A stretch of DNA of 64,000 nt from Candidatus Zhuqueibacterota bacterium. GTDB lineage: Bacteria; Zhuqueibacterota; Zhuqueibacteria; Thermofontimicrobiales; Thermofontimicrobiaceae. The position numbers and the translations under genes were made by a program. The stretch is from the NCBI GenBank assembly GCA_049322915.1, contig JBMOPW010000016.1:199971-263970 (forward strand), read 5' to 3'. The notes beneath the pieces were generated by a model. That model saw only the letters and a list, made by a program, of their open reading frames with translations. It made no database searches and was not told the DNA's origin. This document shows, piece by piece, positions 1 through 63,451 of the stretch (the first letter of the stretch is position 1; each line of letters opens with the position of its first letter).

Positions 1-401
1 ATCAGGTTCTTCATGGAGTAAAATTGAATCTGTTTCTGAACGGTGGAAATCGACTCTATCTTTTCGTTGATTTTCAAAGTATCGAGGGTATCCTGTTTGA
101 GTAACTCGGTGAACTCGCGACGTTCGTCGCGCAACTCAGTCATCAGCGTTTTGAATCCTTTGAAAAATTCAGATCGCAGCGCATTCATCTGCTCTGTCTG
201 TTGAGGCGTTAAGTTCAAATCTTTCGCCAGTTTACTCTCAAAGGACTGTCGGCGATCCGAATCGCTTTGGTCTTTAGCATATTCTTTTGGAATCGATGGT
301 CTGTCGTGCTGAAACCAGCGATAGTAGCTGAATGTGACAATGGTCGAAATATTCAGGATGATCGAAAAGAACAAGAGCCAAATCAGTGCTTTTCTGCTCA
401 T
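1..401 (-). CDS. Spy/CpxP-like periplasmic (heavy-metal sensor family) protein, C-terminus runs off the window
   Basis: Not in ORF track; hand-translated from ATG at 401, which overlaps the anti-sigma stop (ATGA): MSRKALIWLLFFSIILNISTIVTF...LAKDLNLTPQQTEQMNALR... N-terminal TM helix, LNLTxxQ motif, helical body. Confidence 0.75.
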   Translation of the reverse strand, partial: MSRKALIWLLFFSIILNISTIVTFSYYRWFQHDRPSIPKEYAKDQSDSDRRQSFESKLAKDLNLTPQQTEQMNALRSEFFKGFKTLMTELRDERREFTELLKQDTLDTLKINEKIESISTVQKQIQFYSMKNL

Positions 402-898
402 TTGTTTGTACCTTTTGGTTCATTATTATCGGCAATCATGGATGCATAAATTTCACTCACAGAATTCGCAGGCAGATCGGAAAATGAACTGACAGATGTT
501 TGCTGCTCCATTTCCTGTTCCAGCGTGATGGAGATTGGCGCGTTGGCATCTTTATAAATGCTCTTACCCAGGTAAATTCCGATCATAATCCCGATGAGGA
601 ACACCAGTGTCGTGATGACCGGTTTTGGCAGCAACGAGAACGGCGCAGCCAGCCTGTCGATGAACCGCTTTTGCGCATCCTGCCTTTGGATCCGATGGGA
701 TAGCCTGGCCCAGAAATAGGGCGCGCTCGTTATGGTCTCCGCGTTCGATAGCTGGGACCATACCTGTTCCATCCGGCGCAGAATCGCCGAGCAATCCGGA
801 CATTCCCGCAGATGGCGCTGAATGTCCAGCTTCAGGGATTCGCTCACTTCGCCATCCTGAAAGGCGGATAATTTTTTTTTGACCTGGTGACACTTCAT
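398..898 (-). CDS. Zinc-binding (zf-HC2/ZAS) transmembrane anti-sigma factor
   Basis: MKC...HLRECPDC (HxxxCxxC), one TM segment, downstream of an ECF sigma; GGAGG RBS before ATG at 898. Confidence 0.9.
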   Translation of the reverse strand: MKCHQVKKKLSAFQDGEVSESLKLDIQRHLRECPDCSAILRRMEQVWSQLSNAETITSAPYFWARLSHRIQRQDAQKRFIDRLAAPFSLLPKPVITTLVFLIGIMIGIYLGKSIYKDANAPISITLEQEMEQQTSVSSFSDLPANSVSEIYASMIADNNEPKGTNK

Positions 899-1042
899 AT
901 CGTTAACCTCCAGCATATTAAACACAGTGTCAGGATAAAACTTGCGGTGGTTTTCTCCGACGAATTTCAGGGGCGCTGCCTGTCAGAGCATTCACTGAGG
1001 GAAATGCGGCGCCGGCTTTTGTTTGAAGTAAAGTCACAGGAC

Positions 1043-1648
1043 TCATTCCATCCTGTTGAGGCTTTTCAACTTCCTCTGCAAATTGAGTTTTGCCCGATGC
1101 AGTCGCGATTCGATCGCTGAGACAGTTGTATTCAGGACGGCGGCGATCTCCTGGTACGAGAGTCCTTCATATCGGTGCAGAATGACGACTGTCTGCTGAT
1201 TCTCTGGCAGGGACTGAATAGCTTGTTGAACGAGCATTTGCAGCTCTTTCTTTTCAAGTATGATATCAGGCTGCTCTTCGCTGATGAGGTCGGGTAGCCG
1301 ATCCCCGGTTGTCTGGCCGGATTCGAACTGGTGATTCAGCGAAAAGAAGTTCAGGATTTTTTTCCGACGCTGAAAATTGAGGCAGACATTCACCGTAATC
1401 CGGTACAACCAGGTGGAGAGCGATGCATCCGGACGGTAGCGCGGCGCAGCGTTCAAAATTCGAATGAAGACATCCTGGGCAATGTCTTCTGCATCGTTTT
1501 TATTGCCGACGAAACGGTAGCATAAATTGAGAACAGACAATTTATGCTGCTCGACAATCTCCCGAAATGCGGACTCATCGCCCTGCTGGAATCGAAGCAT
1601 CAGTTTTGTGCCAGTATCTTCCATTCGTGGTTTTTCGAATATATTCAC
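1043..1648 (-). CDS. ECF (sigma-70 family) RNA polymerase sigma factor
   Basis: Region 2 (DAEDIAQDVF, STWLYRITVN) and region 4 (LSYQEIAAVL...IESRLHRAK). Confidence 0.95.
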   Translation of the reverse strand: MNIFEKPRMEDTGTKLMLRFQQGDESAFREIVEQHKLSVLNLCYRFVGNKNDAEDIAQDVFIRILNAAPRYRPDASLSTWLYRITVNVCLNFQRRKKILNFFSLNHQFESGQTTGDRLPDLISEEQPDIILEKKELQMLVQQAIQSLPENQQTVVILHRYEGLSYQEIAAVLNTTVSAIESRLHRAKLNLQRKLKSLNRME

Positions 1649-1810
1649 TTTTCATTCAATTACGCGACCTATGCACGTTGAAACTCAATAAAAGATGCAC
1701 ACCTGATTTTATGACGACCGGCCCAGATCTTTTGTTTTGACATCGCACCGACAGGCGCGCGGGACTGCGGATTGCATGCGCGCCCCATCTCCGTTCGGCC
1801 AGAGATTGAA

Positions 1811-3502
1811 TTACTGAATCGTGAATCCAATGACGCGATAGTTGAACTCGTACGCCAGGCTGTTGCTCCATGCCGGCGCCAGAATGGTCTTGAAGCGCGT
1901 GCCATCGTCTGGGCCCACCGGTTTTCCGTAGGAATAGAACCAGTTCACAATGGGACGGCCGGAGAATCCCAGCGCGATCCAGTAGCGTCCCGGGGATATT
2001 GTGGGAGCGTCAGTTCCGAAATCAAAATCGACCCAATCGTAGCCCGGCGTGAATTTGATCTGATCCAGGCTCATCATCTCGCTGGTGGCAAGGGTCGCCC
2101 CGGGCAGGCCATTTTCATCCTTCAACAATTCCAGCCAGAGAAATCCGTTGCCGCCAAATTTGTGCAGCACCACCCCAATCTTGTTTGTCTTCATGGGTCG
2201 GTTCAATACAAAAACCTGGGCGTATTGCGCCTGCTCTGTGACATACTCCGCGGTCTCGACTAAAAAGTTCTTGCGCATCTCGAAATTATTGCCATCGGTG
2301 CGGGTCGCCGGTCCCCGAACTGCCAGGAAATCGACGTTGGCGGGAAATTCCAGATTGCCAAACATGAATGGTTTCGAGTAGGTCAGCACTTTCAATTTTT
2401 CTTCCGGGATTCTCAGCGGCGGCGCCTTTTTTTCTACCGGCACCGGCTGAAAGATGGCCTGAACCGAAGGCGTGAGCAGCAGTTTGCTCGGCCCGTACGA
2501 TTGTTTCTCCGCGGCGATATTCACCTGGTCGGAGACAAATGCGGCTTCGATGGATTCCTCGAACTGCGGCGTTGCCAGATCGCCTTTCATCTGGGTCCAG
2601 CGAATGAGTCCGTCCTGCGAGGTCTCCTCGTTATCCAGCCCGACTTCGACGCGAATGAACCGATTGCTGACGAATAACTGCGTCTGCTGGGGATCGAACG
2701 GGACCCAGCCCAGGTCCGGGAAATAGACCTCAATCCAGGAATGGCGCCCTTCGGCCATTTTCAGGGTCAGGTTCTGATTGCCCATTTTTAACGTGTAAGG
2801 TTGTTTCAGGGTGATGCCATTGACGATCCGCGCCGGAATTCCCACTGACCGCAGCAACGCTGCCGCAAGATGCGAATAGTTCTGGCAGTTGCCTTTGCCG
2901 GAGTTGAACGAATACAACGCACCGTATTCCTGGGGCACCAGCACGTAATTCATGTGGTCGATCACCCAGGTGAGAATTCGCTGCACAGCGTCGAATTCGA
3001 TCCTGGCGCCGGCCGTCAATTGTTTCGCCTTGGCCATGATGGACGCATGGGTGGAAGGCACCTGCTTGGTCGCCGTCAGGTACGGACTGATATCCGCCGG
3101 GACAGCGCCTAACGGGAAAGGTGACTTTGTGGTTAGCGGTTGCAGCAGGGTTTTATTCCGCGCAATCAGGCTCACTTCGGTCGTGACCGTGGATGTCGGC
3201 TGCGTCCAGGAAACCTTGACGACTTTATTACCGCGCTCATCAGTGTACTCTTCCTGTTTATCAGGCTGTGGAAAATATCTGAAATTCAGATTGGCAATGG
3301 TCTGATTGTATGTGGGCGACTGATAAGATACCGGCACAACGTAGCTCAGGTAAAGCGTGTGAATGGCCGGATTGGGCTCAACGGTTTGCACCATTTTATA
3401 ATTGATCTGGGACTCCTGTCCGCCATTCAGCAGATAATTCTCCCCGAAGGATGGGGCGCTGAATACGATGAGCAAAACGATACTGAGAAGAATTGTTTTC
3501 AT
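1811..3502 (-). CDS. Secreted transglutaminase-like (Cys-His-Asp) domain protein
   Basis: Signal peptide MKTILLSIVLL; GNCQNY (Cys), HSWIEVY (His), WVPFDP (Asp); extra C-terminal beta-rich domain. Confidence 0.88.
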   Translation of the reverse strand: MKTILLSIVLLIVFSAPSFGENYLLNGGQESQINYKMVQTVEPNPAIHTLYLSYVVPVSYQSPTYNQTIANLNFRYFPQPDKQEEYTDERGNKVVKVSWTQPTSTVTTEVSLIARNKTLLQPLTTKSPFPLGAVPADISPYLTATKQVPSTHASIMAKAKQLTAGARIEFDAVQRILTWVIDHMNYVLVPQEYGALYSFNSGKGNCQNYSHLAAALLRSVGIPARIVNGITLKQPYTLKMGNQNLTLKMAEGRHSWIEVYFPDLGWVPFDPQQTQLFVSNRFIRVEVGLDNEETSQDGLIRWTQMKGDLATPQFEESIEAAFVSDQVNIAAEKQSYGPSKLLLTPSVQAIFQPVPVEKKAPPLRIPEEKLKVLTYSKPFMFGNLEFPANVDFLAVRGPATRTDGNNFEMRKNFLVETAEYVTEQAQYAQVFVLNRPMKTNKIGVVLHKFGGNGFLWLELLKDENGLPGATLATSEMMSLDQIKFTPGYDWVDFDFGTDAPTISPGRYWIALGFSGRPIVNWFYSYGKPVGPDDGTRFKTILAPAWSNSLAYEFNYRVIGFTIQ

Positions 3503-3834
3503 GATGACTCCCGCGCTGATTAGTAAATTCATTCAATTGCTGGATTGGAATTTATGAATTTAACAGATGATTCACAAGCGAAATTTTCGTTGAGTCCCGG
3601 AAGGGACTTCGCACATCCAGGCGCGCTGTCCGGGGCAAACAGGTTGCCGAAGACAAAATGGCGCTGGATAGTAACCGTCGCAGTCAGACTTGAAAATGCT
3701 GGTGCTTTCACTGCTTCGACCGGATGAAATATGCCATGAATATATGAAAATAATCCGGATATATCAACCACAATTTCAACGAATTTCGGCCCCGGCGCAT
3801 CATGCAATTTCACCCGGCGCGTCGAAAAAATCAC

Positions 3835-3863
3835 TTGACAAATCAATTCTAAAATTGTATATT
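3835..3863 (+). promoter_or_regulatory. Sigma70-type promoter of the RpiR/cyanophycinase operon
   Basis: TTGACA (3835-3840), 17 nt spacer, TATATT (3858-3863), about 50 nt before the RpiR start. Confidence 0.7.
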
Positions 3864-3915: not shown

Positions 3916-4776
3916 ATGGAAAAACGAAAAGCTATCGAAAGCGCTATTCTCAATGTAGTGCCTTCGCTGCCGGCCAATCAAAAGAAAGTGGCGAATTTCT
4001 TCCTGGAACATATCGATCTTGTTGCCCTGCTGCCCATCAAGGACGTCGCCAAAAAAGCTGAAGTCAGCGAAGCGTCCATCGTCCGATTCGCTCAGATGCT
4101 CGGATATAAGGGCTACAAGGAGTTGAAGGACGAACTGACAACCACACTGAAAAGCCAGCTTTCTCCTACTGAATTCTATCAATTCGCCATCTCAGAAAAA
4201 AGTAAAACCCCGGATATTTTCAAACTTGTCGCACACAATGTCATCACCAATATCAACGATAGCATTTCGAACATCGACATGAAAACGTTCTCTCACGTGG
4301 TTGATAGCATCATTTCAGCGCAGCGAATTTATTGTCTGGGAATGGAATTGTCCCATCACCTGTCGCGGCTGATGACCTTTTTGTTGCGCCAGTACAGTTA
4401 CGATGCAAATTATATGTCAGTTGATTTTTTGCAGTACCGCGAGCAGATCGCGTACATGAACAGCGCCGATCTGCTGATTGCCTTCAGTTTTTCGCCCTAT
4501 TCCAGGGAAACGGTGGAGGCGATCGGATTTGCCAGGGATCGGGGCATCAGGAGCATCGCGTTTACGGATAAAAAAACAGCGCCTATTCGGGAGTACGCCA
4601 CCTATTGCCTGCAAATCAAAACGGACAATATCATGTTCAGCAATTCGCTGGGAGCTATTGTCACTATCATTAATGCCATCATCATTGAGTTGAATTTTAG
4701 AGACAAAGAACGGACGCTTTCCGCATTGAAGATTATTGAAGAAAATATTAAGGACGAAAGGTACTTCATCTCATGA
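3916..4776 (+). CDS. MurR/RpiR family transcriptional regulator (HTH + SIS)
   Basis: HTH AKKAEVSEASIVRFAQMLGYKGYKELK; SIS domain DLLIAFSFSPYSRET...IAFTD. Confidence 0.95.
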   Translation: MEKRKAIESAILNVVPSLPANQKKVANFFLEHIDLVALLPIKDVAKKAEVSEASIVRFAQMLGYKGYKELKDELTTTLKSQLSPTEFYQFAISEKSKTPDIFKLVAHNVITNINDSISNIDMKTFSHVVDSIISAQRIYCLGMELSHHLSRLMTFLLRQYSYDANYMSVDFLQYREQIAYMNSADLLIAFSFSPYSRETVEAIGFARDRGIRSIAFTDKKTAPIREYATYCLQIKTDNIMFSNSLGAIVTIINAIIIELNFRDKERTLSALKIIEENIKDERYFIS

Positions 4777-5894
4777 ACGTCGATGAAAAGAAGCTGCTGG
4801 ATCTATTCATGCGCCTGATTCGCGTCGATAGCACGTCCCTCCACGAGCGGGCCATGGCGGATTTTTTAATTACTACATGCAACGATTGGAACATCAAGGT
4901 GGTCGAGGACGATGCCGCGGCCAAAGTCGGCGGCAACTCAGGCAATCTCATCATTCGTTTGTCTTCTGATTCGAACGATGCTCCACCATTGGCGCTGCTG
5001 GCGCACACGGATACAGTGCGCTCCACAGCCCAGGTGAAGCCCAACATCGAGCAGGGCGTGATTCGTTCCGATGGTTCAACAATTTTAGGAGCGGACAACC
5101 GCGGCGGTGTGGCTTTGATTTTGTACGTGATGCAGGAAATTATCGAACGAAAATTGAAACACCGCAGTCTGGAAATTGTTTTCACAGTCGCAGAAGAATT
5201 GGGAATGCTGGGGGCGCTGGCCCTGGACTACAGCCAATTGAAATCCCGGGAAGGCTATGTCTTCGATTGTTCGGCGAAACCCGGTAGCTACGTCAGCGAG
5301 TCTCCCACTGCCTACGATTTTCAGGTGACGTGCAAAGGCCGGCCGGCGCATTCTGCCGTTGCCCCGGAGAAAGGCATCAATGCCGTCCTGATGTCTCTGG
5401 ACGTCATGAATTCGTTTCCGGTCGGACGGCTCAATCAGCACACAGTGGCCAACATTGGCACGATTCAAGGCGGGACAGCCGATAATGTGGTCCCTGATCT
5501 GGTCAAAATCACCGGCGAATTTCGTTCGTTCGTTCCATCGGAAATTGATCGGCTGAAAATGATCCTGCAAAACGCGTGTCACTCAGCAGGGCAAAAATAT
5601 GGCGGTGTTTGCGATGTTGAGTTCAAGCTCAGCTTTAAGGGCTATACATTCAATTCGGCCATGCCAATGATTCGTCGGTTGCACGCGGCCATGCAGAAAT
5701 TGAATCTGGTCCCCAATGCCCTGGTCTATTCCGGGGGCAGTGACGTGAATGTGGTGAATGCCAATGGGATTCTGGCAGTGAATGTCGGGATTGGCGCCAG
5801 CAATCCCCATTCCAATGATGAACAAATCGCGATTTCAGATATGGCAAAAGGCGCAGCGTTGTTGCTGCACCTGATTGAAGCGGAGGAAGCATGA
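4773..5894 (+). CDS. M20 family peptidase T-like metallopeptidase
   Basis: AHTDTV, GADNRGG, AEELG, GGSDVN, NPHSNDE motifs; ATGA overlaps with both neighbours; no signal peptide. Confidence 0.92.
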   Translation: MNVDEKKLLDLFMRLIRVDSTSLHERAMADFLITTCNDWNIKVVEDDAAAKVGGNSGNLIIRLSSDSNDAPPLALLAHTDTVRSTAQVKPNIEQGVIRSDGSTILGADNRGGVALILYVMQEIIERKLKHRSLEIVFTVAEELGMLGALALDYSQLKSREGYVFDCSAKPGSYVSESPTAYDFQVTCKGRPAHSAVAPEKGINAVLMSLDVMNSFPVGRLNQHTVANIGTIQGGTADNVVPDLVKITGEFRSFVPSEIDRLKMILQNACHSAGQKYGGVCDVEFKLSFKGYTFNSAMPMIRRLHAAMQKLNLVPNALVYSGGSDVNVVNANGILAVNVGIGASNPHSNDEQIAISDMAKGAALLLHLIEAEEA

Positions 5895-6733
5895 GAAAAT
5901 TATTTTTCATTTCCCTTGTTCTGATCATGGCTCTGCTCGGCGGCGGGTCGTCTGCAAAAGAGAAAGGACATCTGCTCATCATCGGCGGCGGGGCCAAACC
6001 GCCGGACGCATTGGTCGAGTTCGTCACGCTGAGCCGGAGCGGTCACATCCTGATAATCACCTCAGCCAGCGGCGAACCGGAGTCCTACGGACCGGCGGTG
6101 GTGGAGCAATTCAAACAGGCCGGCGCCAAAAATGTGCACTGGCTGCACATCGACAGCCCGGAGATGGCGAACGCTGACTCCGTGGTGACGCGGATCGAAT
6201 CGTCGACCGGGATTTTTTTCACCGGCGGCATTCAGGAACGACTGATGCAACGCCTGGGAGGCACCCGCTCCGAGGCCGCTGTCGCCACACTCTATTTTGA
6301 AAAAGGCGGCATCATTGGCGGAACCAGCGCCGGCGCTGCAGTGATGAGCGAGGTCATGATTACCGGCAATGAATTGATCAACAAAGACACAACCGATGTG
6401 TTTTTCACCATTCAGGCAGGGAATATTGAAACGAAGCCGGGCTTTGGATTTTTGAAGAAGGTGATCATCGATCAGCATTTCATCGCGCGCAAGCGCCACA
6501 ATCGGCTCATCAGCCTTGTGCTGGAGCATCCCAAACTCGCGGGCATTGGCATCGACGAAGATACCGCGATCCTCGTGAGCCCGGACGATTCGTTCCGCGT
6601 GATCGGCACGGGATCCGTCGTGATCTACGATGCGCGCAAAGCCAAATCGGTTCGAATGGACCAATCCGGACTGTTGGCCGGCCAGGGACTCACCATGTCC
6701 ATTCTCCTCGCCGGAGATAAATTCCGCCTGTAG
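5891..6733 (+). CDS. cphB: Secreted cyanophycinase (peptidase S51)
   Basis: Signal peptide; IIGGG, FTGGIQ, GTSAGA (Ser), IDQHF (His) followed by RKRHNR, GIDEDT (Glu). Confidence 0.9.
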   Translation: MRKLFFISLVLIMALLGGGSSAKEKGHLLIIGGGAKPPDALVEFVTLSRSGHILIITSASGEPESYGPAVVEQFKQAGAKNVHWLHIDSPEMANADSVVTRIESSTGIFFTGGIQERLMQRLGGTRSEAAVATLYFEKGGIIGGTSAGAAVMSEVMITGNELINKDTTDVFFTIQAGNIETKPGFGFLKKVIIDQHFIARKRHNRLISLVLEHPKLAGIGIDEDTAILVSPDDSFRVIGTGSVVIYDARKAKSVRMDQSGLLAGQGLTMSILLAGDKFRL

Positions 6734-6903: not shown

Positions 6904-8295
6904 ATGAAAATCAAATTTAATGTCAACACACTGGTGCTGATTTATGTCATTGTCATTCTCGTCGCGTTGCTCACGTGGATTGTTCCTGGCGGCGAATATC
7001 AGCGGGAAGTCCGGGATGGGAGAACGCTGGTAATCGCTGACTCGTTCACTTACGTCGACAGTCATCCCCAGGGCATTGGCGCTGTGCTAATGGCGCCGAT
7101 TCAGGGGTTCATCCAGGCTGCGCTGATCATCGCGTTCCTGTTCGTCATCGGCGGCGCGTTCAGCGTCATTCAGTCGACTGGCGCGATTACGGCATCGGTT
7201 CAGAAAATGGCTTTCTATTTCAGCAGTAAAAAGCATCTCCAGAAGTTTTTCATCCCGGTGACCATGCTGCTCTTTTCATTGGGCGGCACCTTGTTTGGCA
7301 TGTGCGAAGAGACCATGCCGTTCGTGCTGATTTTCATTCCGCTGTCGATTTCATTGGGCTATGATTCTCTGGTCGGAACGGCCATCCCATTTCTGGGCGC
7401 TGCTGCCGGATTTGCCGGCGCGATTTTCAATCCCTTCACTGTGGGCATCGCGCAAGGCATCGCAGAACTGCCGCTCTATTCCGGCATGGAATACCGCGCG
7501 TTTGTCTGGGTGTTGAGCACTGTTTTTATGACTGCCTTTGTGATGCGTTACGCCGCAAAAATAAAGGCGAACCCGAAGCTCAGTCCGGTCTACGAGATCG
7601 ATCAGGAACGGAAACATAACCTCCACCTGAACACCAACGAACAGACTGAATTTACGCTGTACCATAAACTGGTCATTCTGATCTTCGCTCTGGCCATGAT
7701 TCTTTTAGTGTTCGGCGTGCTGAAATTCCATTGGTACATCAATGAAATTGCTGGCCTGTTTTTGGGACTGGGCATCGTGGCCGGATTTCTGGGGAAATTG
7801 TCGCTCAATCAGATGACCGACAGCTTCAAGAATGGCGCGAAAGACATGATGGGTGTGGCGCTGATCATCGGCTGCGCCAAGGCCATTCTCGTCATTGCCA
7901 ATGACGGCAAAATTCTGGATGCCATGCTGTACAATCTGGCCAGTGTCATCACTCATTTTCATCGGATTGTTGCGGCTCAATCCATGTTCGTCACTCAGGC
8001 GATCATCAATTTCTTCGTGCATTCCGGTTCAGGCCAGGCTGCGCTGACCATGCCGGTCATGGCGCCGCTCGCTGACGTCATTGGCATTTCCCGACAGACG
8101 GCGGTGCTGGCCTTTGTCTTCGGCGAAGGCTGGATCAATCCCATTCTGCCCACATCCGGCGTCACCATGGGCGTGCTGGGGCTGGCCGGCATTTCCTGGG
8201 AGAAATGGGCGAAATGGATGCTGCCGATTCAGATTTTCTTCTTCATCGTAGCGCTGCTATTGTTAATTCCACCGGTGATTTTTCACTGGCAATGA
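6904..8295 (+). CDS. yfcC: YfcC/DcuC-like (basic amino acid/dipeptide) transporter
   Basis: LTWIVPGGEY, FGMCEET, NPFTVGIAQGIAELPLYSG, SGSGQAALTMP motifs; many TM helices. Confidence 0.88.
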   Translation: MKIKFNVNTLVLIYVIVILVALLTWIVPGGEYQREVRDGRTLVIADSFTYVDSHPQGIGAVLMAPIQGFIQAALIIAFLFVIGGAFSVIQSTGAITASVQKMAFYFSSKKHLQKFFIPVTMLLFSLGGTLFGMCEETMPFVLIFIPLSISLGYDSLVGTAIPFLGAAAGFAGAIFNPFTVGIAQGIAELPLYSGMEYRAFVWVLSTVFMTAFVMRYAAKIKANPKLSPVYEIDQERKHNLHLNTNEQTEFTLYHKLVILIFALAMILLVFGVLKFHWYINEIAGLFLGLGIVAGFLGKLSLNQMTDSFKNGAKDMMGVALIIGCAKAILVIANDGKILDAMLYNLASVITHFHRIVAAQSMFVTQAIINFFVHSGSGQAALTMPVMAPLADVIGISRQTAVLAFVFGEGWINPILPTSGVTMGVLGLAGISWEKWAKWMLPIQIFFFIVALLLLIPPVIFHWQ

Positions 8296-8770: not shown

Positions 8771-9937
8771 ATGTTTTCAAAAGTTACGATCAGTTTGATA
8801 AGCCTGATGTTAGTGACCGGTCTGTGCGTCGGGACAGTTCAGGCGCAAGTTACTTTGGACACCGGAAAAATTGGCGTTCGGATAACCAATGCCGGCAGCA
8901 TTCGATTGATGGCTCCCACGTCCAGCGATGATCAGCAGCTCTCCCGAATCAACATCATCGCTGCTTTATCGGAAGATGCAGTGTGCGATTACAACGAAGA
9001 TCAGGATGCTGTCATCCCGGCGTATCAGTTGACGACTCCGACCATTGCCGACGTTGAAGCGATTGCTGTGTATGACAATCGCTATACAAATTTGCCCCCG
9101 GATGTTACGTTCCGGCTGCATGCCTATGCCTGGAATAATGAGCCATTTATGATTGCGAAATACACGATCATCAACGACTCGACCGAGCAAGTGACTCTGT
9201 CACTAGGTTTGCTGACTGTCCCTCGAATAGCGGGTAATTATGGCGGTGAAACAGATGCATATGATGAAGCACATCGCCTGGCCTATTGTTATCGCGAGGG
9301 CGAAGCACCCCATGCCGGTTTTCGACTGCTGTCCATGGAGCCGCATTCGTTCCATGCGCTGGACTGGTTGGTCTATTCTCCTGCTGATCCCAACGCCGAT
9401 GCGGCTACAGACTCCACCCGCTATCACATGACGGCCGATGCCGGTTTTGATACGAGCATTGTGGCCGGCGGCGATGGCTCCATTTTCAGTTTGAATGCCG
9501 GCGCATTCACCCTGGCGGCCGGGGATTCTGTGATTCTGACATACGCAATCGTCTATGCCGATCTTGTAACGGACCTATTCGCTGCAGCCGACGCGGCCCA
9601 GGTGAAGTACGACAACGAAATGCTTTCTGTTCAAGATAGCAGCACGCCCAACACACCGACGCATTTTACACTATTTCAAAATTATCCCAATCCATTCAAT
9701 CCGAGCACCACGATTCGGTTCGATCTCAGTCGTTCGTCCGATGTGCAGTTGACTGTCTATAACACGCAGGGACAACTGGTGAACTCACTTCTGAAAGGCG
9801 CGTACTCTGCCGGCTGCCACGCAATCACGTGGAACGGGAATAGCACTACCGGCATTGAAGTCGGTTCCGGCGTGTATTTCTATCGTCTCACAGCCAATCA
9901 AATCACCGTCACTAAAAAGATGTTACTGGTTCATTAA
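8771..9937 (+). CDS. Secreted protein with C-terminal FlgD-Ig/T9SS-type sorting domain
   Basis: Signal peptide ending AQ; C-terminus [19 protein letters not shown]...GVYFYRL...KKMLLVH; GGAGG RBS. Confidence 0.85.
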   Translation: MFSKVTISLISLMLVTGLCVGTVQAQVTLDTGKIGVRITNAGSIRLMAPTSSDDQQLSRINIIAALSEDAVCDYNEDQDAVIPAYQLTTPTIADVEAIAVYDNRYTNLPPDVTFRLHAYAWNNEPFMIAKYTIINDSTEQVTLSLGLLTVPRIAGNYGGETDAYDEAHRLAYCYREGEAPHAGFRLLSMEPHSFHALDWLVYSPADPNADAATDSTRYHMTADAGFDTSIVAGGDGSIFSLNAGAFTLAAGDSVILTYAIVYADLVTDLFAAADAAQVKYDNEMLSVQDSSTPNTPTHFTLFQNYPNPFNPSTTIRFDLSRSSDVQLTVYNTQGQLVNSLLKGAYSAGCHAITWNGNSTTGIEVGSGVYFYRLTANQITVTKKMLLVH

Positions 9938-10093
9938 TGTGTGGGGGCTGCACCGGAATTCATGCCTGATGGACGCATGCTGCCTTCCTGAGAGTGAGTC
10001 GGTTCTGCTCGCTCCGAGGCATGCTGTGCGCATTCAGCGATGCTTTTGGTGCAGCCCCTCCAGCGTATTGCACGAATTTTTGAGGCGTACACA

Positions 10094-12565
10094 ATGAAAA
10101 GATTAGTCTTGATATTTCTCTTCATTTTGCCGGTGTCGCTCAGCGCAGGCGTTACCGGCAAATTGTCCGGAACGATCACGGACGCTTCCACCGGCGAAGC
10201 CCTTATTGGCGCAACAGTGCTCATCGCTGGCACCAATCTGGGAGCAGCGACAGATTTGGATGGGAAATTTATCATCCTGAACATCCCACCCGGCAGCGTG
10301 ACGATTCGCGCCAGCTATATCGGTTATGAATCGGCCGCAATATCCAACGTGAAAATAATGATGGACCTGACGACGACCATCACTATCAAGCTGCGGGAGT
10401 CGACCATCGAGCTGGGGCAGGAGGTGGTGATCACAGCCGAAAAGCCGATGATTCAAAAAGACCTCACCAGTTCCAGCGCCTATATGAGACGCGACGAAAT
10501 AGAGGGTCTGCCGGTCTCGGATTTTAGCGATGTGCTGGCCCTGCAGGCCGGAGTGACAGATCAGGAAGGCAGCCTCCATATCCGCGGCGGGCGCTCCAAT
10601 GAAGTGGCATTTCTGATTGACGGCATGTACGTACATGATCCGTTGTTGGGCAGAATGATCACGCAAATCAACAACGACGCGATTCAGGAGATGAGTCTGC
10701 TGAGCGGCACGTTCAATGCCGAGTATGGCAATGCGCTCAGCGGTGTTGTCAATATTGTCACGCGCGATGGGGGTGTTAAGCACAGCGGTCGGATGGAGGC
10801 CCGAACCAGCGAATTCGGCCTGGATCGTTACAATAAGCTGGGTGAAAATCGGTTGAATGGCAATCTCGGCGGCCCTTTTATCACTGAAAAAATCCGCTAT
10901 TTCATTTCAGGCGAGCAGAACAACCGCGACAACTATCTACCTTTTGGCTACGAAGATAACATGACGTTCTTCAGCAAATTGTCGTTCAATTTTTTCCCGG
11001 GATTGAAATTCGTCCTTTCCAATCGCGGCAGCAAGGGGGAGCGACAGGGCTACAGTCACAGTTACAAGTATATTCCCGAACAATATCTGAAGAGTCGAAG
11101 GAATAGCTGGCAAACCACCCTGACGGTTTCCCACATGCTTCGGTCGAATTTATTTTACGATGCGCGCGTCTCATATCTGGAACAGGATTACTACTCCGGT
11201 GTGGACAAAGACACGTCGGAATACCTTTCCACGTCTGAGTGGGAATATTTGACCAACGTCGGCAACAGTTTTGAATTCTGGCAACGCGCCGACCCATTGG
11301 AAATGATCGATAGCAAGACAAAAACCGCGGATTTCAAAGGCGATCTGGTCTGGCAGGCGGGCAAAATCAATGAAGTGAAAGTCGGCTTGCAGTACAAGAA
11401 ACACTGGCTGAATCTGTTCAGCGTATATGATCCGAAGCGAAATTACCCGTACATCAATGACTACCGCATTCAGCCGTTCGAAGCCGCTGCGTATTTCCAG
11501 GATAAAATTGAATTCCCGTTTTTAATCATCAATCTGGGACTGCGTTACGATTATTTTAATGCCAATGCTACATTTCGCGGGGACCCACTGGACACACAAG
11601 CTGCGTTCATTCAGGTCAAATCGAGGTCGCAGTTCAGTCCGCGCGTCGGCATTGCCCATCCGGTCTCCGATAAAACCAAGCTACATTTCGCCTATGGCCA
11701 TTTTTTCCAGAATCCGGAGTACCAATATCTGTTTGAAAACAATCAATATGATTTGAACGTGCGGGAGCCGTTGTTCGGCCAGCCGAATCTGGATGCGGAG
11801 CGGACTATCGCCTACGAAGTCGGTGTTTCGCACCAGTTTTCTGATCGCATTGCCGCGCATCTGACGGCGTATTACAAGGACGTCACCGGGCTAATCGGCA
11901 CCCGCTACTTCGAGGCGTTCATGGGGAACACCGGGCGCTACGTTGGCTATACGGTATACATCAATGAAGATTACGCCAATATCAAAGGTTTCGAGATCAA
12001 CGCCGATGTTCGGCCGGGGAAATATCTGTCCGGCGGCCTGAGCTATACGTTCATGATTGCCAAAGGCAGCGCTTCGTCTGAAACCGAGCAATACCCCGGC
12101 ACCGAAGAATCAACCCGACTCTATTTCCTTAATTATGACCAGCGGCATAATCTGAATATGACGGCAACGTTTCAAATTCCGAAAGATGAGGGGCCGATCC
12201 TGTTTGGCTATCATTGGCTGGCCAATACCGATTACAGCGTGGTGTTACGGGCGAGCTCCGGCTTCCCGTACACACCGAGCGGCAGGGACATTGGTTTCGT
12301 CGATAGAAACTCGTTGCGAATGCCGGGCCGGTACTCCATGGATCTGGAAATTGGCAAGGAATTTTCCAGCATCTTCCAGACAAGAATTCGCGTCTTCGCA
12401 GAGGTCCTGAATCTGACCGATCATCGCAATGTGCTGTACGTCTATGGCGACACAGGGGAACCGGATTTCACCTTCGAAGGCGGCCATTCAGCCGAATGGA
12501 TGAACGATCCCTCGAATTACGGCCCGCCGCGAAGCATTCGGTTGGGGATCGGAATGCGATTCTAA
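10094..12565 (+). CDS. TonB-dependent receptor with N-terminal carboxypeptidase-regulatory-like domain
   Basis: GKLSGTITDASTGEALIGA; plug LHIRGGRSNEVAFLIDG, FNAEYGNALSGVVNIVT; barrel ending LGIGMRF. Start moved to MKRLVL after GAGG. Confidence 0.95.
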   Translation: MKRLVLIFLFILPVSLSAGVTGKLSGTITDASTGEALIGATVLIAGTNLGAATDLDGKFIILNIPPGSVTIRASYIGYESAAISNVKIMMDLTTTITIKLRESTIELGQEVVITAEKPMIQKDLTSSSAYMRRDEIEGLPVSDFSDVLALQAGVTDQEGSLHIRGGRSNEVAFLIDGMYVHDPLLGRMITQINNDAIQEMSLLSGTFNAEYGNALSGVVNIVTRDGGVKHSGRMEARTSEFGLDRYNKLGENRLNGNLGGPFITEKIRYFISGEQNNRDNYLPFGYEDNMTFFSKLSFNFFPGLKFVLSNRGSKGERQGYSHSYKYIPEQYLKSRRNSWQTTLTVSHMLRSNLFYDARVSYLEQDYYSGVDKDTSEYLSTSEWEYLTNVGNSFEFWQRADPLEMIDSKTKTADFKGDLVWQAGKINEVKVGLQYKKHWLNLFSVYDPKRNYPYINDYRIQPFEAAAYFQDKIEFPFLIINLGLRYDYFNANATFRGDPLDTQAAFIQVKSRSQFSPRVGIAHPVSDKTKLHFAYGHFFQNPEYQYLFENNQYDLNVREPLFGQPNLDAERTIAYEVGVSHQFSDRIAAHLTAYYKDVTGLIGTRYFEAFMGNTGRYVGYTVYINEDYANIKGFEINADVRPGKYLSGGLSYTFMIAKGSASSETEQYPGTEESTRLYFLNYDQRHNLNMTATFQIPKDEGPILFGYHWLANTDYSVVLRASSGFPYTPSGRDIGFVDRNSLRMPGRYSMDLEIGKEFSSIFQTRIRVFAEVLNLTDHRNVLYVYGDTGEPDFTFEGGHSAEWMNDPSNYGPPRSIRLGIGMRF

Positions 12566-12709: not shown

Positions 12710-15520
12710 ATGATGAAAAAAATATTAATCATGCTCCAAACCATTCTACTCCTGACGTCACTTGCGGTGGCTCAGCCAGCTGTAAAAGAAAAGGACAAAG
12801 AGGCCAGGGACGTTTTTGTGGAAAAAGCTTCCGGCGTCGAAGACCGGGCCGGCGGCACGCACAATGCCAGCAACATCGGCCTGTTTTTTGAAAACAGGGG
12901 CAAACTGTATCCGCGCCGACTGACCCAGGGGCCCTCCGGGGAATTTCCCATTGGATCGGCAAAGCATTATGTCTACCGAATCAATCCCATGGTTGGAATT
13001 CCCGGCAATGTCATTCAGGGCCGCTACACGACCAATGAGGAATGGGAAGCAGTCGGTGGGTATCACAACCGGGAGTTCGCGAAGATCGCGTTCAGCGATA
13101 ATCCCAGTTCCTGGAATACGACCCTGGGCTGGCCGGTCAAAGACGCTGAAGGGAATCCGATTTTCAAATCGGATCAGGACAGTTATTGCGTGTACGATGA
13201 CGCCAACAATTCCGTGAAGCGATTGGGGGTGACGGTGATCCAGACCGGTTATGCCTATGGCGTCACGTTCGCCCAGAATTTGATATTCTACAAGTTCGAA
13301 GTAGTCAACAACGGCGCGAACGATCTGAACGACCTGTATTTTGCCATGTACTGCGACATGGATATTGGCAACGTGAGCGGGGGTACGCCGGAGTACGGCG
13401 ATGATCGGATCGATTTTGACAGGCAGAATAATTTTGTCTATAGTTTTGATGATGGCCTTTCCGATGAGTGGGCTGGCGGCGTCACCGGCTACATGGGTGT
13501 GGCCATGCTCAAGACACCGGAGGTCAATGGCGTCGAACTGGGCGTCACGGATATGCATTACAATGTTTATGATGACGATAAAGACGATGATAGTCTGCAA
13601 TTCGCCATCCTGTCCAGCAGAACCGATATGGTCGATCCGCAGTCGCTGGTGCCGCGATATTTTCACCCGGGGGCTGGCGGCGATCTCCATTTTGATGATC
13701 CGGCGACAATTCCCGCGTCTGGAATCGATCTTCTGGCGACCATCAGTTCCGGCCCTTACCAGCTTCAGCGCGGCGATACACTGGTATTTTACATGGCGCT
13801 GATTGCCGGGAATAATCTGGACGATCTCTACAACTCACTGTACACAGCCCAACGCATTTTGGATTTCGATTTCGAAATCAGCAAACCGCCCCGAACACCG
13901 ACGCTGAGCGCCCATGCCGGCGATGGCCGCGTGACGCTCTTCTGGAATGATTTCGCCGAGTTATCGCTCGATAATTATTCCGGCGAATATGATTTCGAGG
14001 GCTATCGAATTTACAAGAGTCTGGATAAAGGGCTGCATTGGGACCAATTCGATAGAAATGTTGATCCGTCCGTGGGGGAGGAACCTGTGCCACTGGCGCA
14101 GTTCGATATTATCAATAACCTGGGACTGGATTCCGGGCTGCAGTACAGCTTCACAGATACCAGCGTTCATAACGGCTTCGAATATTGGTACACAGTCACG
14201 GCATTCGATCGCGGCGATGAATCGGTCGAAAGTCTCGAAAGCCCAAAAGGCAATTCCACCGACGCTCTCAATACCGTGTCCGTCATTCCCAAATCGAACG
14301 CTTCCGGGCGTACGCCGGTCTCGTCCGAATCGGTGAGCCATATCGGACTGGGAAAATCCAACTACGTGCTTGATGTTGAACCGATCGATGAGGATTCACT
14401 GGGCGACCGCGAATACCAGATCAGGTTCTCGTACGTTCAGAGGACGATTCGGGGAACGTTGAAGACGACCATCGTGCCAATTATCTCGGATTCCGCCCGG
14501 ACTGAGTCGAAACGGTATGGCGTGGAATTCATCTCGCCGACGTCGTTTCATCTGATTGATCTGAACACCGGCGATTATATTGGCTCGGACCCGCGCAATT
14601 ATCGCTCCGGCACCACGTATTCGCTCAATGCCGGCATGAAGATAAAAATCGTGGATCCTGATCCGACTGCTGCTCCGGAGTTCCTGCCCAAAGCCGATGA
14701 TTATCTCACGCTCAATTACGCCGCCCATGTCGTGCGCAATAACGCCGATACTATCATGGCGCAGCAGCCGTTCATCATCGGGAAAAAGCATGCCACCAGC
14801 GATGGTGTTGTGTTCAGTCTGGATCCACCCGAAACCATTCAAAGCGTCTCGCGCGTGGGAGGCGCCGACATTCTTGATATCAGCTTCTCAGTCTACGACG
14901 CAACGCTGGTGCAAAACGATACGGTCCTCATTTCCATTCAGCAGAGTGGCTTCGATGGGAGCGGCAATGGATTTGTGTCCGTGCTCATCGAACATGCAAA
15001 TGATGAGTCGGTGACGGTCGATTCGTTGTACAATCTGGACAGCTTTGAATTCGACGGAATTCGCGGCACGCTCGAATTCCAGTCCGCCAACCCGCCCGGT
15101 CCCGGCAATGCATTCGTCATTGTCACCCTTGTGCCTGTGGCGCCGAACATCCGGGACGCCTATCGTTTCAGAATAAAAGGCTCCGTCGTCGAACAGGCGC
15201 GCAGTGACAGCGAGTTGGAGGGCATCAAAGTGGTGCCAAATCCCTATCTGGTCTCTTCATTGTATGAACCTGAATTTGGTGAATTGAGGCGAGAACCCAT
15301 TCGACAGATTCAATTCATCAATTTACCCCAGGAATGCACCATCTATATTTTCACCATTGCCGGCGATCGCGTCAAAACGATTGACCATTCTGCACGGAAC
15401 GGCACGGAGACCTGGGATTTGCGTTCTGATGGCGGACGTGAAATTGCGTCCGGCGTTTATCTTTATATGGTTCGGACGCGAAACGCTCAATTCAAAGGGA
15501 CATTTGCAGTGATCAAATGA
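12710..15520 (+). CDS. Large secreted protein with Fn3-like module and C-terminal sorting domain
   Basis: Signal peptide; AGDGRVTLFW...DFEGYRIYKS...NGFEYWYTVTAFD (Fn3-like); C-terminal IKVVPNPY...WDLRS...IASGVYLY. Confidence 0.8.
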   Translation: MMKKILIMLQTILLLTSLAVAQPAVKEKDKEARDVFVEKASGVEDRAGGTHNASNIGLFFENRGKLYPRRLTQGPSGEFPIGSAKHYVYRINPMVGIPGNVIQGRYTTNEEWEAVGGYHNREFAKIAFSDNPSSWNTTLGWPVKDAEGNPIFKSDQDSYCVYDDANNSVKRLGVTVIQTGYAYGVTFAQNLIFYKFEVVNNGANDLNDLYFAMYCDMDIGNVSGGTPEYGDDRIDFDRQNNFVYSFDDGLSDEWAGGVTGYMGVAMLKTPEVNGVELGVTDMHYNVYDDDKDDDSLQFAILSSRTDMVDPQSLVPRYFHPGAGGDLHFDDPATIPASGIDLLATISSGPYQLQRGDTLVFYMALIAGNNLDDLYNSLYTAQRILDFDFEISKPPRTPTLSAHAGDGRVTLFWNDFAELSLDNYSGEYDFEGYRIYKSLDKGLHWDQFDRNVDPSVGEEPVPLAQFDIINNLGLDSGLQYSFTDTSVHNGFEYWYTVTAFDRGDESVESLESPKGNSTDALNTVSVIPKSNASGRTPVSSESVSHIGLGKSNYVLDVEPIDEDSLGDREYQIRFSYVQRTIRGTLKTTIVPIISDSARTESKRYGVEFISPTSFHLIDLNTGDYIGSDPRNYRSGTTYSLNAGMKIKIVDPDPTAAPEFLPKADDYLTLNYAAHVVRNNADTIMAQQPFIIGKKHATSDGVVFSLDPPETIQSVSRVGGADILDISFSVYDATLVQNDTVLISIQQSGFDGSGNGFVSVLIEHANDESVTVDSLYNLDSFEFDGIRGTLEFQSANPPGPGNAFVIVTLVPVAPNIRDAYRFRIKGSVVEQARSDSELEGIKVVPNPYLVSSLYEPEFGELRREPIRQIQFINLPQECTIYIFTIAGDRVKTIDHSARNGTETWDLRSDGGREIASGVYLYMVRTRNAQFKGTFAVIK

Positions 15521-15601: not shown

Positions 15602-16600
15602 ATGAACAAGATAAAAACTCTGGTGATTCTCTGTGTTCTGGCCGGGACGCTTCAGGGTCTGGCCCAGAATCCGAACCTGGGGACGAGCGGCGCGCAATTT
15701 CTCAAAATCCCCATCAGCGCGCGCGCGGCAGCTATGGGCGGCGCCTATACCGGCGTTTGTCAGGATGCGACGTCCGTGTTCTGGAACCCGGCCGGCATTG
15801 CGAATGTCAAAACCCATTCCGCCCATTTTTCGTTCACCAAATGGTTCGATACGTTCGATGTCAATGCAGCGTCTTATATTTACAATGGCGGTCAATTTGG
15901 CGTGGTTGCGGTGAGCATGCTGATGCTGGGCGTCGATGAGATGGAAGTGACCACGGAATTTTCTCCCAATGGCACCGGCCGATTTTTCGATGCGCAGGAT
16001 CTGGCGCTGGGCCTGAGCTATGGCCGGAATCTGACGGATCGATTTCGCATCGGTCTGACAGCGAGGTATGTGCAGCAGCGAATCTGGAACGAAACGGCCA
16101 ACGGGATCGCATTTGATGTGGGCACGCAATACCAATTGGCGTTCAGAAATATGACCATTGCCATGAGCATGACCAATTTTGGGCCGGATATGCAATTCGG
16201 CGGGCCGGATTTGAGCGTCACATACGACAACGACGCGAATTTTCCCAACCGATTGGTACCGACGCGGCTGGAAACTGAGACCTATCCGCTCCCGTTGAAT
16301 TTTGAATTTGGCATTGCCATGGATCTGTATTCGTCCCAATTCGTAAGCGCAATCGTCGCCGTGGATGCGGTCCATCCGAATGACAATCAGGAGCGAATCC
16401 ACATTGGGACAGAGGTGTCATTTTACGACCGGCTGTTCTTCCGCGGCGGGTATAAACTAAATCATGAAGACGAAATGTATAATTTCGGAAGCGGCGTCAC
16501 GGCCTTCATCGCCGGCGCCGTGCTCAGCTTTGATTACGCCTTTTCCGTCTACGACATTCTGCCAGATGTGCATCGGTTTTCTTTTGGGGTGAATTTTTGA
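15602..16600 (+). CDS. PorV/PorQ (UPF0164-like) outer-membrane beta-barrel
   Basis: GTSGAQFLKIPISARAAAMGGA...SVFWNPAG; ends HRFSFGVNF. Confidence 0.88.
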   Translation: MNKIKTLVILCVLAGTLQGLAQNPNLGTSGAQFLKIPISARAAAMGGAYTGVCQDATSVFWNPAGIANVKTHSAHFSFTKWFDTFDVNAASYIYNGGQFGVVAVSMLMLGVDEMEVTTEFSPNGTGRFFDAQDLALGLSYGRNLTDRFRIGLTARYVQQRIWNETANGIAFDVGTQYQLAFRNMTIAMSMTNFGPDMQFGGPDLSVTYDNDANFPNRLVPTRLETETYPLPLNFEFGIAMDLYSSQFVSAIVAVDAVHPNDNQERIHIGTEVSFYDRLFFRGGYKLNHEDEMYNFGSGVTAFIAGAVLSFDYAFSVYDILPDVHRFSFGVNF

Positions 16601-61599: not shown

Positions 61600-62034
61600 G
61601 TGAAAACTTTTTCACCACGACCGAAAGACATCGATCGGCACTGGTTCGTTGTCGATGCGAGAAATCAGGTGTTAGGTCGATTGGCATCGCAGGTCGCGCA
61701 TGTCCTGCGCGGCAAACATAAACCGACTTTCGCACCGCATTTCGATGTTGGCGATCATGTTGTTGTAATTAACGCCGAGAAGGTTCGCCTAACCGGAAGG
61801 AAAGCCCAGCACAAAGTGTACAGTCGTCATACCGGCTATCCCGGCGGTCTGCGGCAGACAGTCTATGAAGACATGATGAAAACCTATCCGGAACGAATCA
61901 TCGAACATGCAATAAAAGGCATGCTGCCCGATAATCGTCTCGGCCGGCAGATGTTCAGAAAATTGAAAGTGTATGTCGGTGAATCGCATCCTCATCATGC
62001 CCAAAATCCCAAGCCTCTGGAGCTTCATAAATAA
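61600..62034 (+). CDS. rplM: 50S ribosomal protein L13
   Basis: WFVVDA..LGRLAS..LRGKHKP..GDHVVVINA..HTGYPGG; GTG start with AGGAG RBS. Confidence 0.98.
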   Translation: MKTFSPRPKDIDRHWFVVDARNQVLGRLASQVAHVLRGKHKPTFAPHFDVGDHVVVINAEKVRLTGRKAQHKVYSRHTGYPGGLRQTVYEDMMKTYPERIIEHAIKGMLPDNRLGRQMFRKLKVYVGESHPHHAQNPKPLELHK

Positions 62035-62125
62035 AAGGCAGTCAGGCGGGCCATCATCGTTCGCTCGGTTTGAAAACAGTCGTAATTAAAGTAAGGCATA
62101 AATCAAAAAAACAAAGAGGTTATGT

Positions 62126-62518
62126 ATGAAAGTAACGGAGTATCGCGCGACAGGCCGGAGAAAAGGCTCCATCGCAAGAGTCAGGGTGATGCCTGGCAAT
62201 GGAAAAATCGAAGTGAATAAAAAGTCGCTGATTGATCATTTCAAACGTGAAACACTGAAGATGTTGATCGAGCAGCCGTTTATCAAAACTGAAACACAGG
62301 AAAAGTTCGATGTTGTGGCTGATGTCAACGGCGGCGGATTGTCCGGTCAGGCCGGCGCTGTGCGTCTGGGAATTTCCAGGGCGCTGCTGCAATACGATGA
62401 AGAGCTGCGATCCATTTTACGGGCTAACGGCTTTTTGACCAGGGATCCTCGCGAGAAAGAGCGCAAGAAATATGGTATGGCTGGCGCGCGCAAACGGTAT
62501 CAATTTTCCAAACGTTAA
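62126..62518 (+). CDS. rpsI: 30S ribosomal protein S9
   Basis: ATGRRK..GGGLSGQAGA..LTRDPREKERKKYG..QFSKR. Confidence 0.98.
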   Translation: MKVTEYRATGRRKGSIARVRVMPGNGKIEVNKKSLIDHFKRETLKMLIEQPFIKTETQEKFDVVADVNGGGLSGQAGAVRLGISRALLQYDEELRSILRANGFLTRDPREKERKKYGMAGARKRYQFSKR

Positions 62519-62538
62519 TATCTGTTTATCTGATGAAG

Positions 62539-62632: not shown

Positions 62633-62649
62633 ATTAGAGGAGAATTATC

Positions 62650-63426: not shown

Positions 63427-63451
63427 AATTTTATATAGAGAGGAGTTAGAA

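Follow-up and report, generated by a model that had tools for sequence, protein, structure and literature searches.

Cyanophycin is a widespread store of nitrogen, carbon, and energy, and to our knowledge the last step of its breakdown is known from three enzyme families only. Which enzyme takes that step at a locus that encodes a cyanophycinase and none of these three? The question is raised by a 64,000-nucleotide stretch of DNA (contig JBMOPW010000016.1, positions 199,971 to 263,970; hereafter the window) from a bacterium of Candidatus Zhuqueibacterota, in which a gene for an M20 metallopeptidase of 373 amino acids (aa; P0001, 4773..5894, + strand) stands directly between a regulator gene and a cyanophycinase gene. 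The original prediction, made from these letters, was that the M20 clade may be a further beta-aspartyl dipeptidase. Our analysis supports the clade as a candidate for this activity, through conserved linkage, clade structure, and a distribution complementary to that of the isoaspartyl dipeptidases IadA and IaaA. On balance we consider it probable, judging by sequence and gene context, that the M20 protein is a dedicated cytoplasmic beta-Asp-Arg/Lys dipeptidase of cyanophycin scavenging.

Gene order at the window locus

Four co-directional genes, rpiR, M20, S51, and yfcC, stand behind a promoter match. The operon's first gene encodes an RpiR/MurR-family regulator, with HTH_6 and SIS domains in family scans (3916..4776, + strand). 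The M20 gene follows, then a gene for a cyanophycinase of peptidase family S51 (P0002, 280 aa, 5891..6733, + strand) and one for a YfcC/DcuC-family inner-membrane transporter (6904..8295, + strand; PF03606, 347 bits) that may import the dipeptide. On the model NF008611, "putative basic amino acid antiporter YfcC," the transporter scored 402 bits, below the cut-off of 500 bits. The M20 gene had been said to overlap both the rpiR stop and the cyanophycinase start, and this was confirmed: both junctions read ATGA, a 4-nt overlap of start and stop codons. These overlaps point to translational coupling of rpiR, M20, and S51, which we count in favor of the proposed role. The promoter match is sigma-70-like (TTGACA-17-TATATT, 11/12, 3835..3863, + strand) and ends 53 nt ahead of the rpiR start; it is a match to the consensus, with a presumed function, and 11 such sites were found where shuffled sequence would lead us to expect 7.2. 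As had also been observed, the 64-kb window contains no IadA-, IaaA-, or CphZ-type gene, while the genome does hold one IaaA-type gene elsewhere.

An exported cyanophycinase without a synthetase

The small S51 protein scored 177.1 bits on the cyanophycinase equivalog model TIGR02069, well over the cut-off of 126.6. In a full-length alignment with the cyanophycinase structures 7uqv and 3en0 it kept the motifs GTSAGA, DQHF..R.R..R, and GIDEDT, which, as in CphB, would hold the Ser-His-Glu triad and the arginine-rich pocket. Its N-terminus, MRKLFFISLVLIMALLGGGSSA, is a signal peptide. Here our results depart from the expectation of an intracellular, CphB-type cyanophycinase, as the signal peptide indicates an exported, CphE-like enzyme.

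The source genome (6.25 Mb in 45 contigs, 96% complete) yielded no cyanophycin synthetase CphA1, with a best TIGR02068 score of 153.9 bits against a cut-off of 850. Since the cyanophycinase is exported and the genome has no cyanophycin synthetase, we interpret the locus as one for scavenging and not as a storage cluster. A second secreted S51 protein, longer and with a type IX secretion system (T9SS) tail (Por_Secre_tail), is encoded on contig C14 (L080:7534-9243), away from the window locus. We read the window as a cyanophycin-scavenging locus of the polymer-utilization type. The transporter and M20 genes are encoded with the cyanophycinase and conserved with it, and both their substrates are predicted from that company.

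The M20 protein and its PepT-like relatives

The protein belongs to peptidase family M20 (clan MH) and has the family's domain plan, a catalytic domain with an inserted dimerization (lid) domain (Pfam Peptidase_M20, 65.9 bits; M20_dimer, 53 bits). Over its full length it matched TIGR01883, the hypothetical equivalog "peptidase T-like protein," at 268.6 bits against a cut-off of 274.25, a near miss by 5.6 bits. By sequence it is a close relative of this uncharacterized group and not a certified member. The models of true PepT were far from reached (TIGR01882, 78 bits versus 285.75; PRK05469, 124.2 versus 255; PRK13381, 130.9 versus 293), and matches to the PepT models spanned residues 88–371 only. 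The ArgE/DapE-type model TIGR01910 matched weakly (90.5 bits, cut-off 217.6). Family scans gave no match to TIGR01975 (IadA), PF01112 (IaaA), or PF04952/PF24827 (CphZ), in agreement with the proposed lack of homology to these enzymes. No hydrophobic leader was seen at the N-terminus, so the protein is predicted to be cytoplasmic, the location originally proposed.

An AlphaFold (AF2) model of the protein (predicted local distance difference test 93.6, predicted template modeling score 0.89) placed it in the same company. The nearest solved proteins by sequence were the structural-genomics entries 3gb0 (E 1e-69) and 3rza (E 1e-54), for which we know of no published assay. These two also led the fold matches (TM 0.88–0.90, with 0.88 for 3gb0), followed by PepT and, at rank 5, PahZ2, ahead of CPG2, DapE, and ArgE; all of the top fold matches were M20 enzymes.

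Five residues, H78, D108, E141, D165, and H346, were invariant across 25 diverse clade members, and E142 was retained in at least 90% of them. By comparison with PepT and DapE structures we take these to be the two-metal ligands and the catalytic Glu, and the protein has the two-metal site that marks the M20 family (His, bridging Asp, Glu, Asp/Glu, and His, with a catalytic Glu). In the lid domain, H193, N227, and R251 were invariant across the same 25 proteins; presumably they are the counterparts of the His/Asn/Arg residues with which other M20 dipeptidases and deacylases bind the carboxylate of their substrate. In chemical terms, beta-Asp-Arg is arginine acylated at its amino group and free at its C-terminal carboxylate, and it resembles the N-succinyl and N-acetyl amino acids cleaved by DapE and ArgE.

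Linkage of M20 and cyanophycinase

Linkage of the M20 gene to a cyanophycinase gene proved not to be unique to this genome; such uniqueness is what the original prediction had named as telling against it. The phylum corresponds, by the NCBI names of homologs at 46%–72% identity, to candidate division KSB1, represented in our collection by 167 species genomes. Taking cyanophycinase matches of at least 200 bits, and best M20 matches that share contig and strand with them at a distance of no more than 650 nt, we found the M20 gene beside cyanophycinase in 35 of the 46 cyanophycinase genomes (34 of 45 when the unpublished G158 is left out). The linked genomes span eight families, and M20 identity to the window protein goes down to 36%–42% in the most distant. 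Among the unlinked genomes, G134 and G165 have contigs that end at the M20 spot, with rpiR-M20 present on a separate 2.8-kb contig in G134, and in G122 the locus is split in two and the M20 gene stays with the part holding rpiR and the receptor gene. The remaining unlinked cyanophycinase genomes have no M20 ortholog.

Where loci could be followed further, they kept a conserved plan over 12–16 kb. It starts with rpiR, M20, small S51, and yfcC, continues with a T9SS cargo gene (not present in all loci), a receptor gene, a gene for a partner protein of 630–940 aa, and a PorV-like gene, and ends with an NhaC-type transporter gene (likewise not present in all) and the long T9SS-tailed S51 gene, which lies within the locus in most relatives. 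The regulator gene is kept beside the M20 gene in most related loci, and yfcC is conserved next to the S51 gene.

The association extends to a second phylum. Among 401 Bacteroidota genomes drawn evenly from the phylum of G167, a Flammeovirgaceae metagenome-assembled genome, 17 genomes together gave 21 matches to the M20 query (E ≤ 1e-50). The immediate neighbor was an S51 gene for 18 of these and an M14 peptidase gene for 3, with none having neither; 13 of the 18 S51-linked genes also had yfcC inside the 1.5-kb flank. Cyanophycinases over the cut-off occurred in 88 of the sampled genomes, and the M20-linked form in 17 of the 88.

Metagenome contigs, scanned with an alignment of 25 clade members, added 80 loci with 74 distinct M20 proteins. 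Many of these contigs are short. The M20 gene stood by an S51 gene in 31 cases (one of them, L116, counted after inspection), by an M14 gene in 16, and by yfcC in 8, on contigs mostly cut before a possible S51 gene; 12 contigs were too short to judge, 3 showed receptor or regulator genes only, and 4 showed none of these. In the metagenomes the S51-M20 link survives rearrangement, as the orders rpiR-M20-S51-yfcC, M20-yfcC-rpiR-S51, and M20-S51-yfcC-...-rpiR-receptor all occur. Because these loci carry no taxonomy, the claim of a second phylum rests on the Bacteroidota genome sample.

Clades of M20 proteins and their partner enzymes

A tree of 143 M20 proteins (KSB1, 48; metagenomes, 74; Bacteroidota sample, 21) was built by an IQ-TREE quick search under LG+G4, with support from the Shimodaira–Hasegawa-like approximate likelihood ratio test (SH-aLRT), and rooted on housekeeping paralogs. 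Proteins were labeled by the neighbors of their genes, and the tree was computed from their sequences. That cyanophycinase-linked M20 proteins would form a clade was borne out: all 76 S51-linked proteins fell in one clade of 106 (SH-aLRT 96) with no M14-linked member, and 19 of the 20 M14-linked proteins fell in a separate clade of 23 (SH-aLRT 95) with no S51-linked member. The Bacteroidota proteins, 18 S51-linked and 3 M14-linked, each sat in the matching clade, and two smaller trees gave the same picture. Two paralogs in the source genome, one PepT-type (C14:623874, 25% identity) and one PepT-like (C14:175174, 33% identity), lay outside both clades. Just four positions separated the S51-linked from the M14-linked clade (F253/A, F288/Y, P345/A, and I340/V), and both clades differed from the housekeeping paralog at T85, R110, G171, G322, S323, N326, and P345.

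The M14-linked sister loci have a gene order of their own: receptor, large partner, PorV-like protein, a T9SS protein of ~480 aa without a domain match, M20, and an exported M14 peptidase of ~500 aa, followed by an NhaC-type transporter, a DASS transporter, and rpiR. Such loci were seen in metagenomes (L113:1-12417, L146, L127, L118, and L130) and in the Bacteroidota sample (L164, L166, and L180). Among solved structures, the M14 peptidase is closest to the cytosolic carboxypeptidase (CCP)-like 4a37 and 4b6z. One clade member (L137) adjoins a PGA_cap-domain gene, which hints at poly-gamma-glutamate.

Tentatively, and with more doubt than confidence, we suggest a wider scheme in which the M20 proteins of such loci form a family of cytoplasmic dipeptidases that cleave the isopeptide bonds of acidic residues linked through their side chains. 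The two clades might then be matched to two polymers, one to cyanophycin (beta-Asp-Arg/Lys, after S51 and YfcC) and the other to another acidic polyamide such as poly-gamma-glutamate (after the exported CCP-like M14 peptidase and the NhaC-type transporter). With the shared RpiR regulator, TonB receptor, large partner, PorV, and T9SS cargo, they would make up a general "polyamide utilization locus" of Fibrobacteres–Chlorobi–Bacteroidetes (FCB)-group bacteria.

Distribution of M20, IadA, and IaaA

The IaaA-type gene of the source genome is its sole Asparaginase_2 match. It lies on contig C35 and encodes a leaderless protein of 312 aa, which scored 312 bits on PF01112 and 189 on NF007589 (cut-off 567). 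The best match to the IadA model in this genome reached 26 bits (contig C7), and PF04952 (CphZ-type) had no match there. PF24827 gave weak matches on C7, C3, and C30 and one below the cut-off on C16, the contig of the window, ~145 kb upstream. Two remote AstE/AspA-like open reading frames (ORFs) on C7 were considered as CphZ orthologs and rejected; their best solved relative was 2qj8 (44 bits), and no CphZ chain was among the structure matches.

Across the phylum, nine genomes from three independent lineages have a cyanophycinase and no M20 ortholog. Three of them have IadA over the cut-off (G051, G120, and G121), four have a full-length IaaA-type gene (G043–G046), and two are only 56%–59% complete. 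Of the 37 genomes with both cyanophycinase and M20, IadA was found in one, G097, where a contig of 861 nt carries part of the gene.

The partner also varies with the kind of locus in Bacteroidota. An IaaA-type gene adjoins cyanophycinase in 15 of the 20 top-scoring Bacteroidota loci, most of which also have an ORF of 870–895 aa beside the cyanophycinase; this ORF is CphA1 in both loci scanned (L184 and L189). These top-scoring loci are storage clusters. With four candidates scored per genome, IadA adjoins S51 in at least two Bacteroidota genomes, and M20 adjoins S51 in 17. This dependence on locus kind suggests that M20 fills the slot of the known isoaspartyl dipeptidases.

Other genes of the locus and the window

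Downstream of yfcC, the window locus continues on the + strand with genes for the cell surface. A T9SS cargo protein of 388 aa (8771..9937) has a C-terminal sorting domain and no assigned function in family scans; homologs occur at the equivalent position in related loci. It is followed by a TonB-dependent receptor-like outer-membrane protein with CarboxypepD_reg, Plug, and barrel regions, also by family scans (10040..12565), whose gene is kept in the locus phylum-wide and in metagenome loci. A protein of 936 aa without a Pfam match (12710..15520) holds a conserved position after the receptor; always 3' of it, this is possibly a surface partner of the receptor. A PorV-like outer-membrane protein (15602..16600; PF19572, 31.6 bits) comes next, again in a conserved position.

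Some further S51 genes and neighbors were seen. The long T9SS-tailed S51 gene on C14 adjoins a gene for an M1 aminopeptidase of 1063 aa, also T9SS-tailed (L080:7534-12951), and in close relatives the long S51 gene is the last gene of the locus itself. A third, short S51-domain match (36 bits) lies in a 259-aa ORF outside the inspected loci (G000:C12:113195-113527, L213). In G122, a T9SS-tailed S51 gene, yfcC, and the small S51 gene lie beside M49 and M1 peptidase genes (L061:5975-14461), with rpiR-M20-receptor on another contig. In the family of G044 and G045, which has the cyanophycinase-yfcC pair without M20, a divergently oriented gene for an M28 peptidase of 472–511 aa adjoins the cyanophycinase gene (L055:9330-10748 in G044; L056:8346-9881 in G045).

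On the opposite strand upstream of rpiR (398-3532), the window encodes a zf-HC2 anti-sigma factor (398-925), an extracytoplasmic function (ECF) sigma factor (1043-1648), and a transglutaminase-like protein of 573 aa (1811-3532); these three upstream genes gave no sign of belonging to the cyanophycin locus. Base composition at the far end of the window (62001-64000) had a GC content of 0.446, a GC skew of 0.163, and an AT skew of 0.21, and elsewhere in the window GC is ~0.5, GC skew ~0.02, and AT skew near 0.

Proposed pathway and alternative explanations

From the arrangement of the locus we infer a substrate for the M20 enzyme, a cargo for the transporter and the receptor, and a signal for the regulator. 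Cyanophycin from other microbes would be attacked outside the cell by the long T9SS-tailed S51 protein, encoded on another contig in the source genome. Fragments would pass the outer membrane via the TonB-dependent receptor with its partner protein, and in the periplasm the small exported S51 enzyme would degrade them to the dipeptide beta-Asp-Arg (or beta-Asp-Lys). The YfcC-type transporter would bring the dipeptide across the inner membrane, where the cytoplasmic M20 protein would hydrolyze the isopeptide bond by the family's two-metal mechanism, releasing free Asp and Arg. The RpiR-type regulator would control the operon.

Several observations weigh against assigning this step to the M20 protein. 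Its substrate is read from gene context, which cannot fix a substrate, and the counts of linked genomes are non-independent, as they include kin genomes. The unlinked, leaderless IaaA-type gene on C35 could do the job in the source genome, and IaaA-type genes occur in 113 of the 167 genomes of the phylum. The expectation that M20 replaces iadA or iaaA held in one direction, as M20-less cyanophycinase genomes carry IadA or a full-length IaaA-type gene (except the two that are less than 60% complete), and only in part in the other, as 13 of the 37 genomes with both M20 and cyanophycinase, the source genome included, also hold a full-length IaaA-type gene. M20 is not simply a substitute for an IadA or IaaA gene absent from the genome. 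In one genus (G154, G155, and G156), an Asparaginase_2 gene even lies inside the locus together with M20 (L204:8912-9994 in G154 and L205:7714-8898 in G155; in G156 by coordinates only). It is of the shorter-matching type and stands between rpiR and the receptor gene, and the twin-arginine leader read in G154 and G155 (MSLTRREFLAL...) implies that the product should be periplasmic. As only four positions separate the two M20 clades, their active sites are perhaps not specialized for a single product. The S51 clade also has members without any cyanophycinase of this type, namely eight family-f14 proteins, whose genes adjoin an S4-domain gene and citrate synthase, and metagenome kin. Finally, those of its closest relatives that have names carry tripeptidase annotations, and its own TIGR01883 score is 5.6 bits under the cut-off.

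Most of these observations would fit an M20 protein that is a broad PepT-like di- or tripeptidase for imported alpha-peptides, with beta-Asp-Arg split by an IaaA-type enzyme elsewhere or by a periplasmic Asparaginase_2, and the sister M20 proteins that serve M14 loci would fit as well. We nevertheless regard this explanation as unlikely. The sole known product of cyanophycinase is a beta-linked dipeptide, according to the available sections of PMC9974463. The source genome already has its separate PepT-type and PepT-like paralogs outside the locus-linked clades, M20 proteins of two phyla divide neatly according to their partner enzyme, and a full-length IaaA-type gene is absent from 24 of the 37 genomes that have both genes (these have a shorter-matching Asparaginase_2 type or none), as is IadA from 36 of the 37. 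The locus might instead target another aspartate-rich peptide or polyamide, with S51 and M20 acting on a product other than beta-Asp-Arg. Regulators of the RpiR/SIS type are not known as peptide sensors, scores on the Pfam S51 model are only 28–38 bits for the long T9SS-tailed S51 proteins, and our literature searches gave no demonstration of cyanophycin degradation by any member of the phylum. Yet the small S51 protein stands 50 bits above the cyanophycinase equivalog cut-off and retains the catalytic and arginine-rich motifs in a full-length alignment to solved cyanophycinases, and a pairing of a small with a Por-tailed S51 protein is described in the cyanobacteria-feeding Salinivirga (PMC6243061, in the part available), so that another target seems quite improbable. 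Least probable of all, and very much so in our view, is a deacylase of the ArgE/DapE kind whose substrate would be, in place of the dipeptide, an N-acylated amino acid formed at a later stage of arginine or aspartate catabolism. Many N-acyl-amino-acid hydrolases belong to the M20 family, and the weak TIGR01910 score and the presence of DapE and ArgE among the fold matches could be read in this way, but the conserved locus includes no acylating or catabolic enzyme that would make such a substrate, and the PepT-like group is closer than ArgE/DapE by both sequence and fold. A dedicated beta-Asp-Arg/Lys dipeptidase is the function we favor for the M20 protein.

Relation to known systems and significance

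A role of this kind has a parallel in CphZ (AotO), an M14 enzyme of AstE/AspA type. As described in the accessible portion of PMC9974463 (Sharon et al. 2023), this zinc hydrolase was discovered because its gene clusters with cyanophycin genes, and it also occurs in genomes without cyanophycin synthetase, beside a transporter, where it permits growth on imported beta-Asp-Arg, the role proposed here for M20. CphZ is of an unrelated fold and family, and its activity was proven by assay, whereas the M20 role is predicted; the available text of that paper has no occurrence of M20. IadA, an amidohydrolase, and IaaA, an N-terminal nucleophile (Ntn) hydrolase, are likewise reported to be encoded beside cyanophycinase, especially where cphA1 is absent (PMC10206079, in excerpt), which is the slot of M20 here. 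They are not homologous to M20 and are described in the same excerpt as promiscuous housekeeping enzymes, and in the window's phylum IadA occurs mainly in cyanophycinase genomes without M20.

Within the M20 family, the protein shares fold, domain plan, and metal-binding residues with PepT (an M20B tripeptidase) and the TIGR01883 group (3gb0 and 3rza). It differs from PepT in scoring far below the cut-offs of the PepT models and in belonging to a locus-linked clade apart from the genome's own PepT-like paralog. PahZ2 of Sphingomonas sp. KT-1 (7ljh) has the same fold (Foldseek E 7e-29, TM 0.79) and can hydrolyze the amide bonds of oligo-aspartate in either alpha or beta linkage, as stated in the portion of PMC13017698 at hand. 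It differs in being periplasmic, in its low identity (19%), and in acting on oligo-aspartate and not on a dipeptide; because PahZ2 cleaves beta-aspartyl bonds, the M20 fold can do that chemistry.

The type of locus is known. Scavenging clusters with cyanophycinase, iadA or iaaA, and a transporter have already been described (PMC10206079, as excerpted, citing Ben Hania et al. 2017). The cyanophycin utilization locus of Salinivirga cyanobacteriivorans L21-Spi-D4 encodes cyanophycinases, one small and one Por-secretion-tailed (PMC10206079 and PMC6243061, both in part), and, as a locus for scavenging that combines such genes with those of a dipeptidase and a transporter, resembles the window locus. 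In that locus the dipeptidase is iadA (PMC10206079, same excerpt), whereas M20 takes its place here. In window-type loci the outer-membrane module consists of a CarboxypepD_reg-type TonB receptor, the unnamed protein of 630–940 aa, and PorV, a comparison for which Salinivirga is known through citing papers. Full-text literature searches, which included PMC3400609 and whose coverage ended short of the original 2017 Salinivirga paper, found no link between an M20 peptidase and cyanophycinase. M20 appears to be a non-homologous candidate for the terminal enzyme, one for which we found no prior description.

Isoaspartyl dipeptidases are still unidentified in many genomes, Bacteroidota included, according to the sections of PMC10206079 available. 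If M20 turns out to fill this gap, cyanophycin scavenging in the FCB group and the little-known KSB1 could usually end with it. It would represent a fourth, unrelated solution to one reaction, would assign a function to the "PepT-like" M20 group, and would serve as a marker by which the recycling of cyanophycin can be followed in sediments, mats, and sludge. Should the more tentative scheme of two matched clades also hold, the polyamide utilization locus would be a protein-polymer counterpart of polysaccharide utilization loci.

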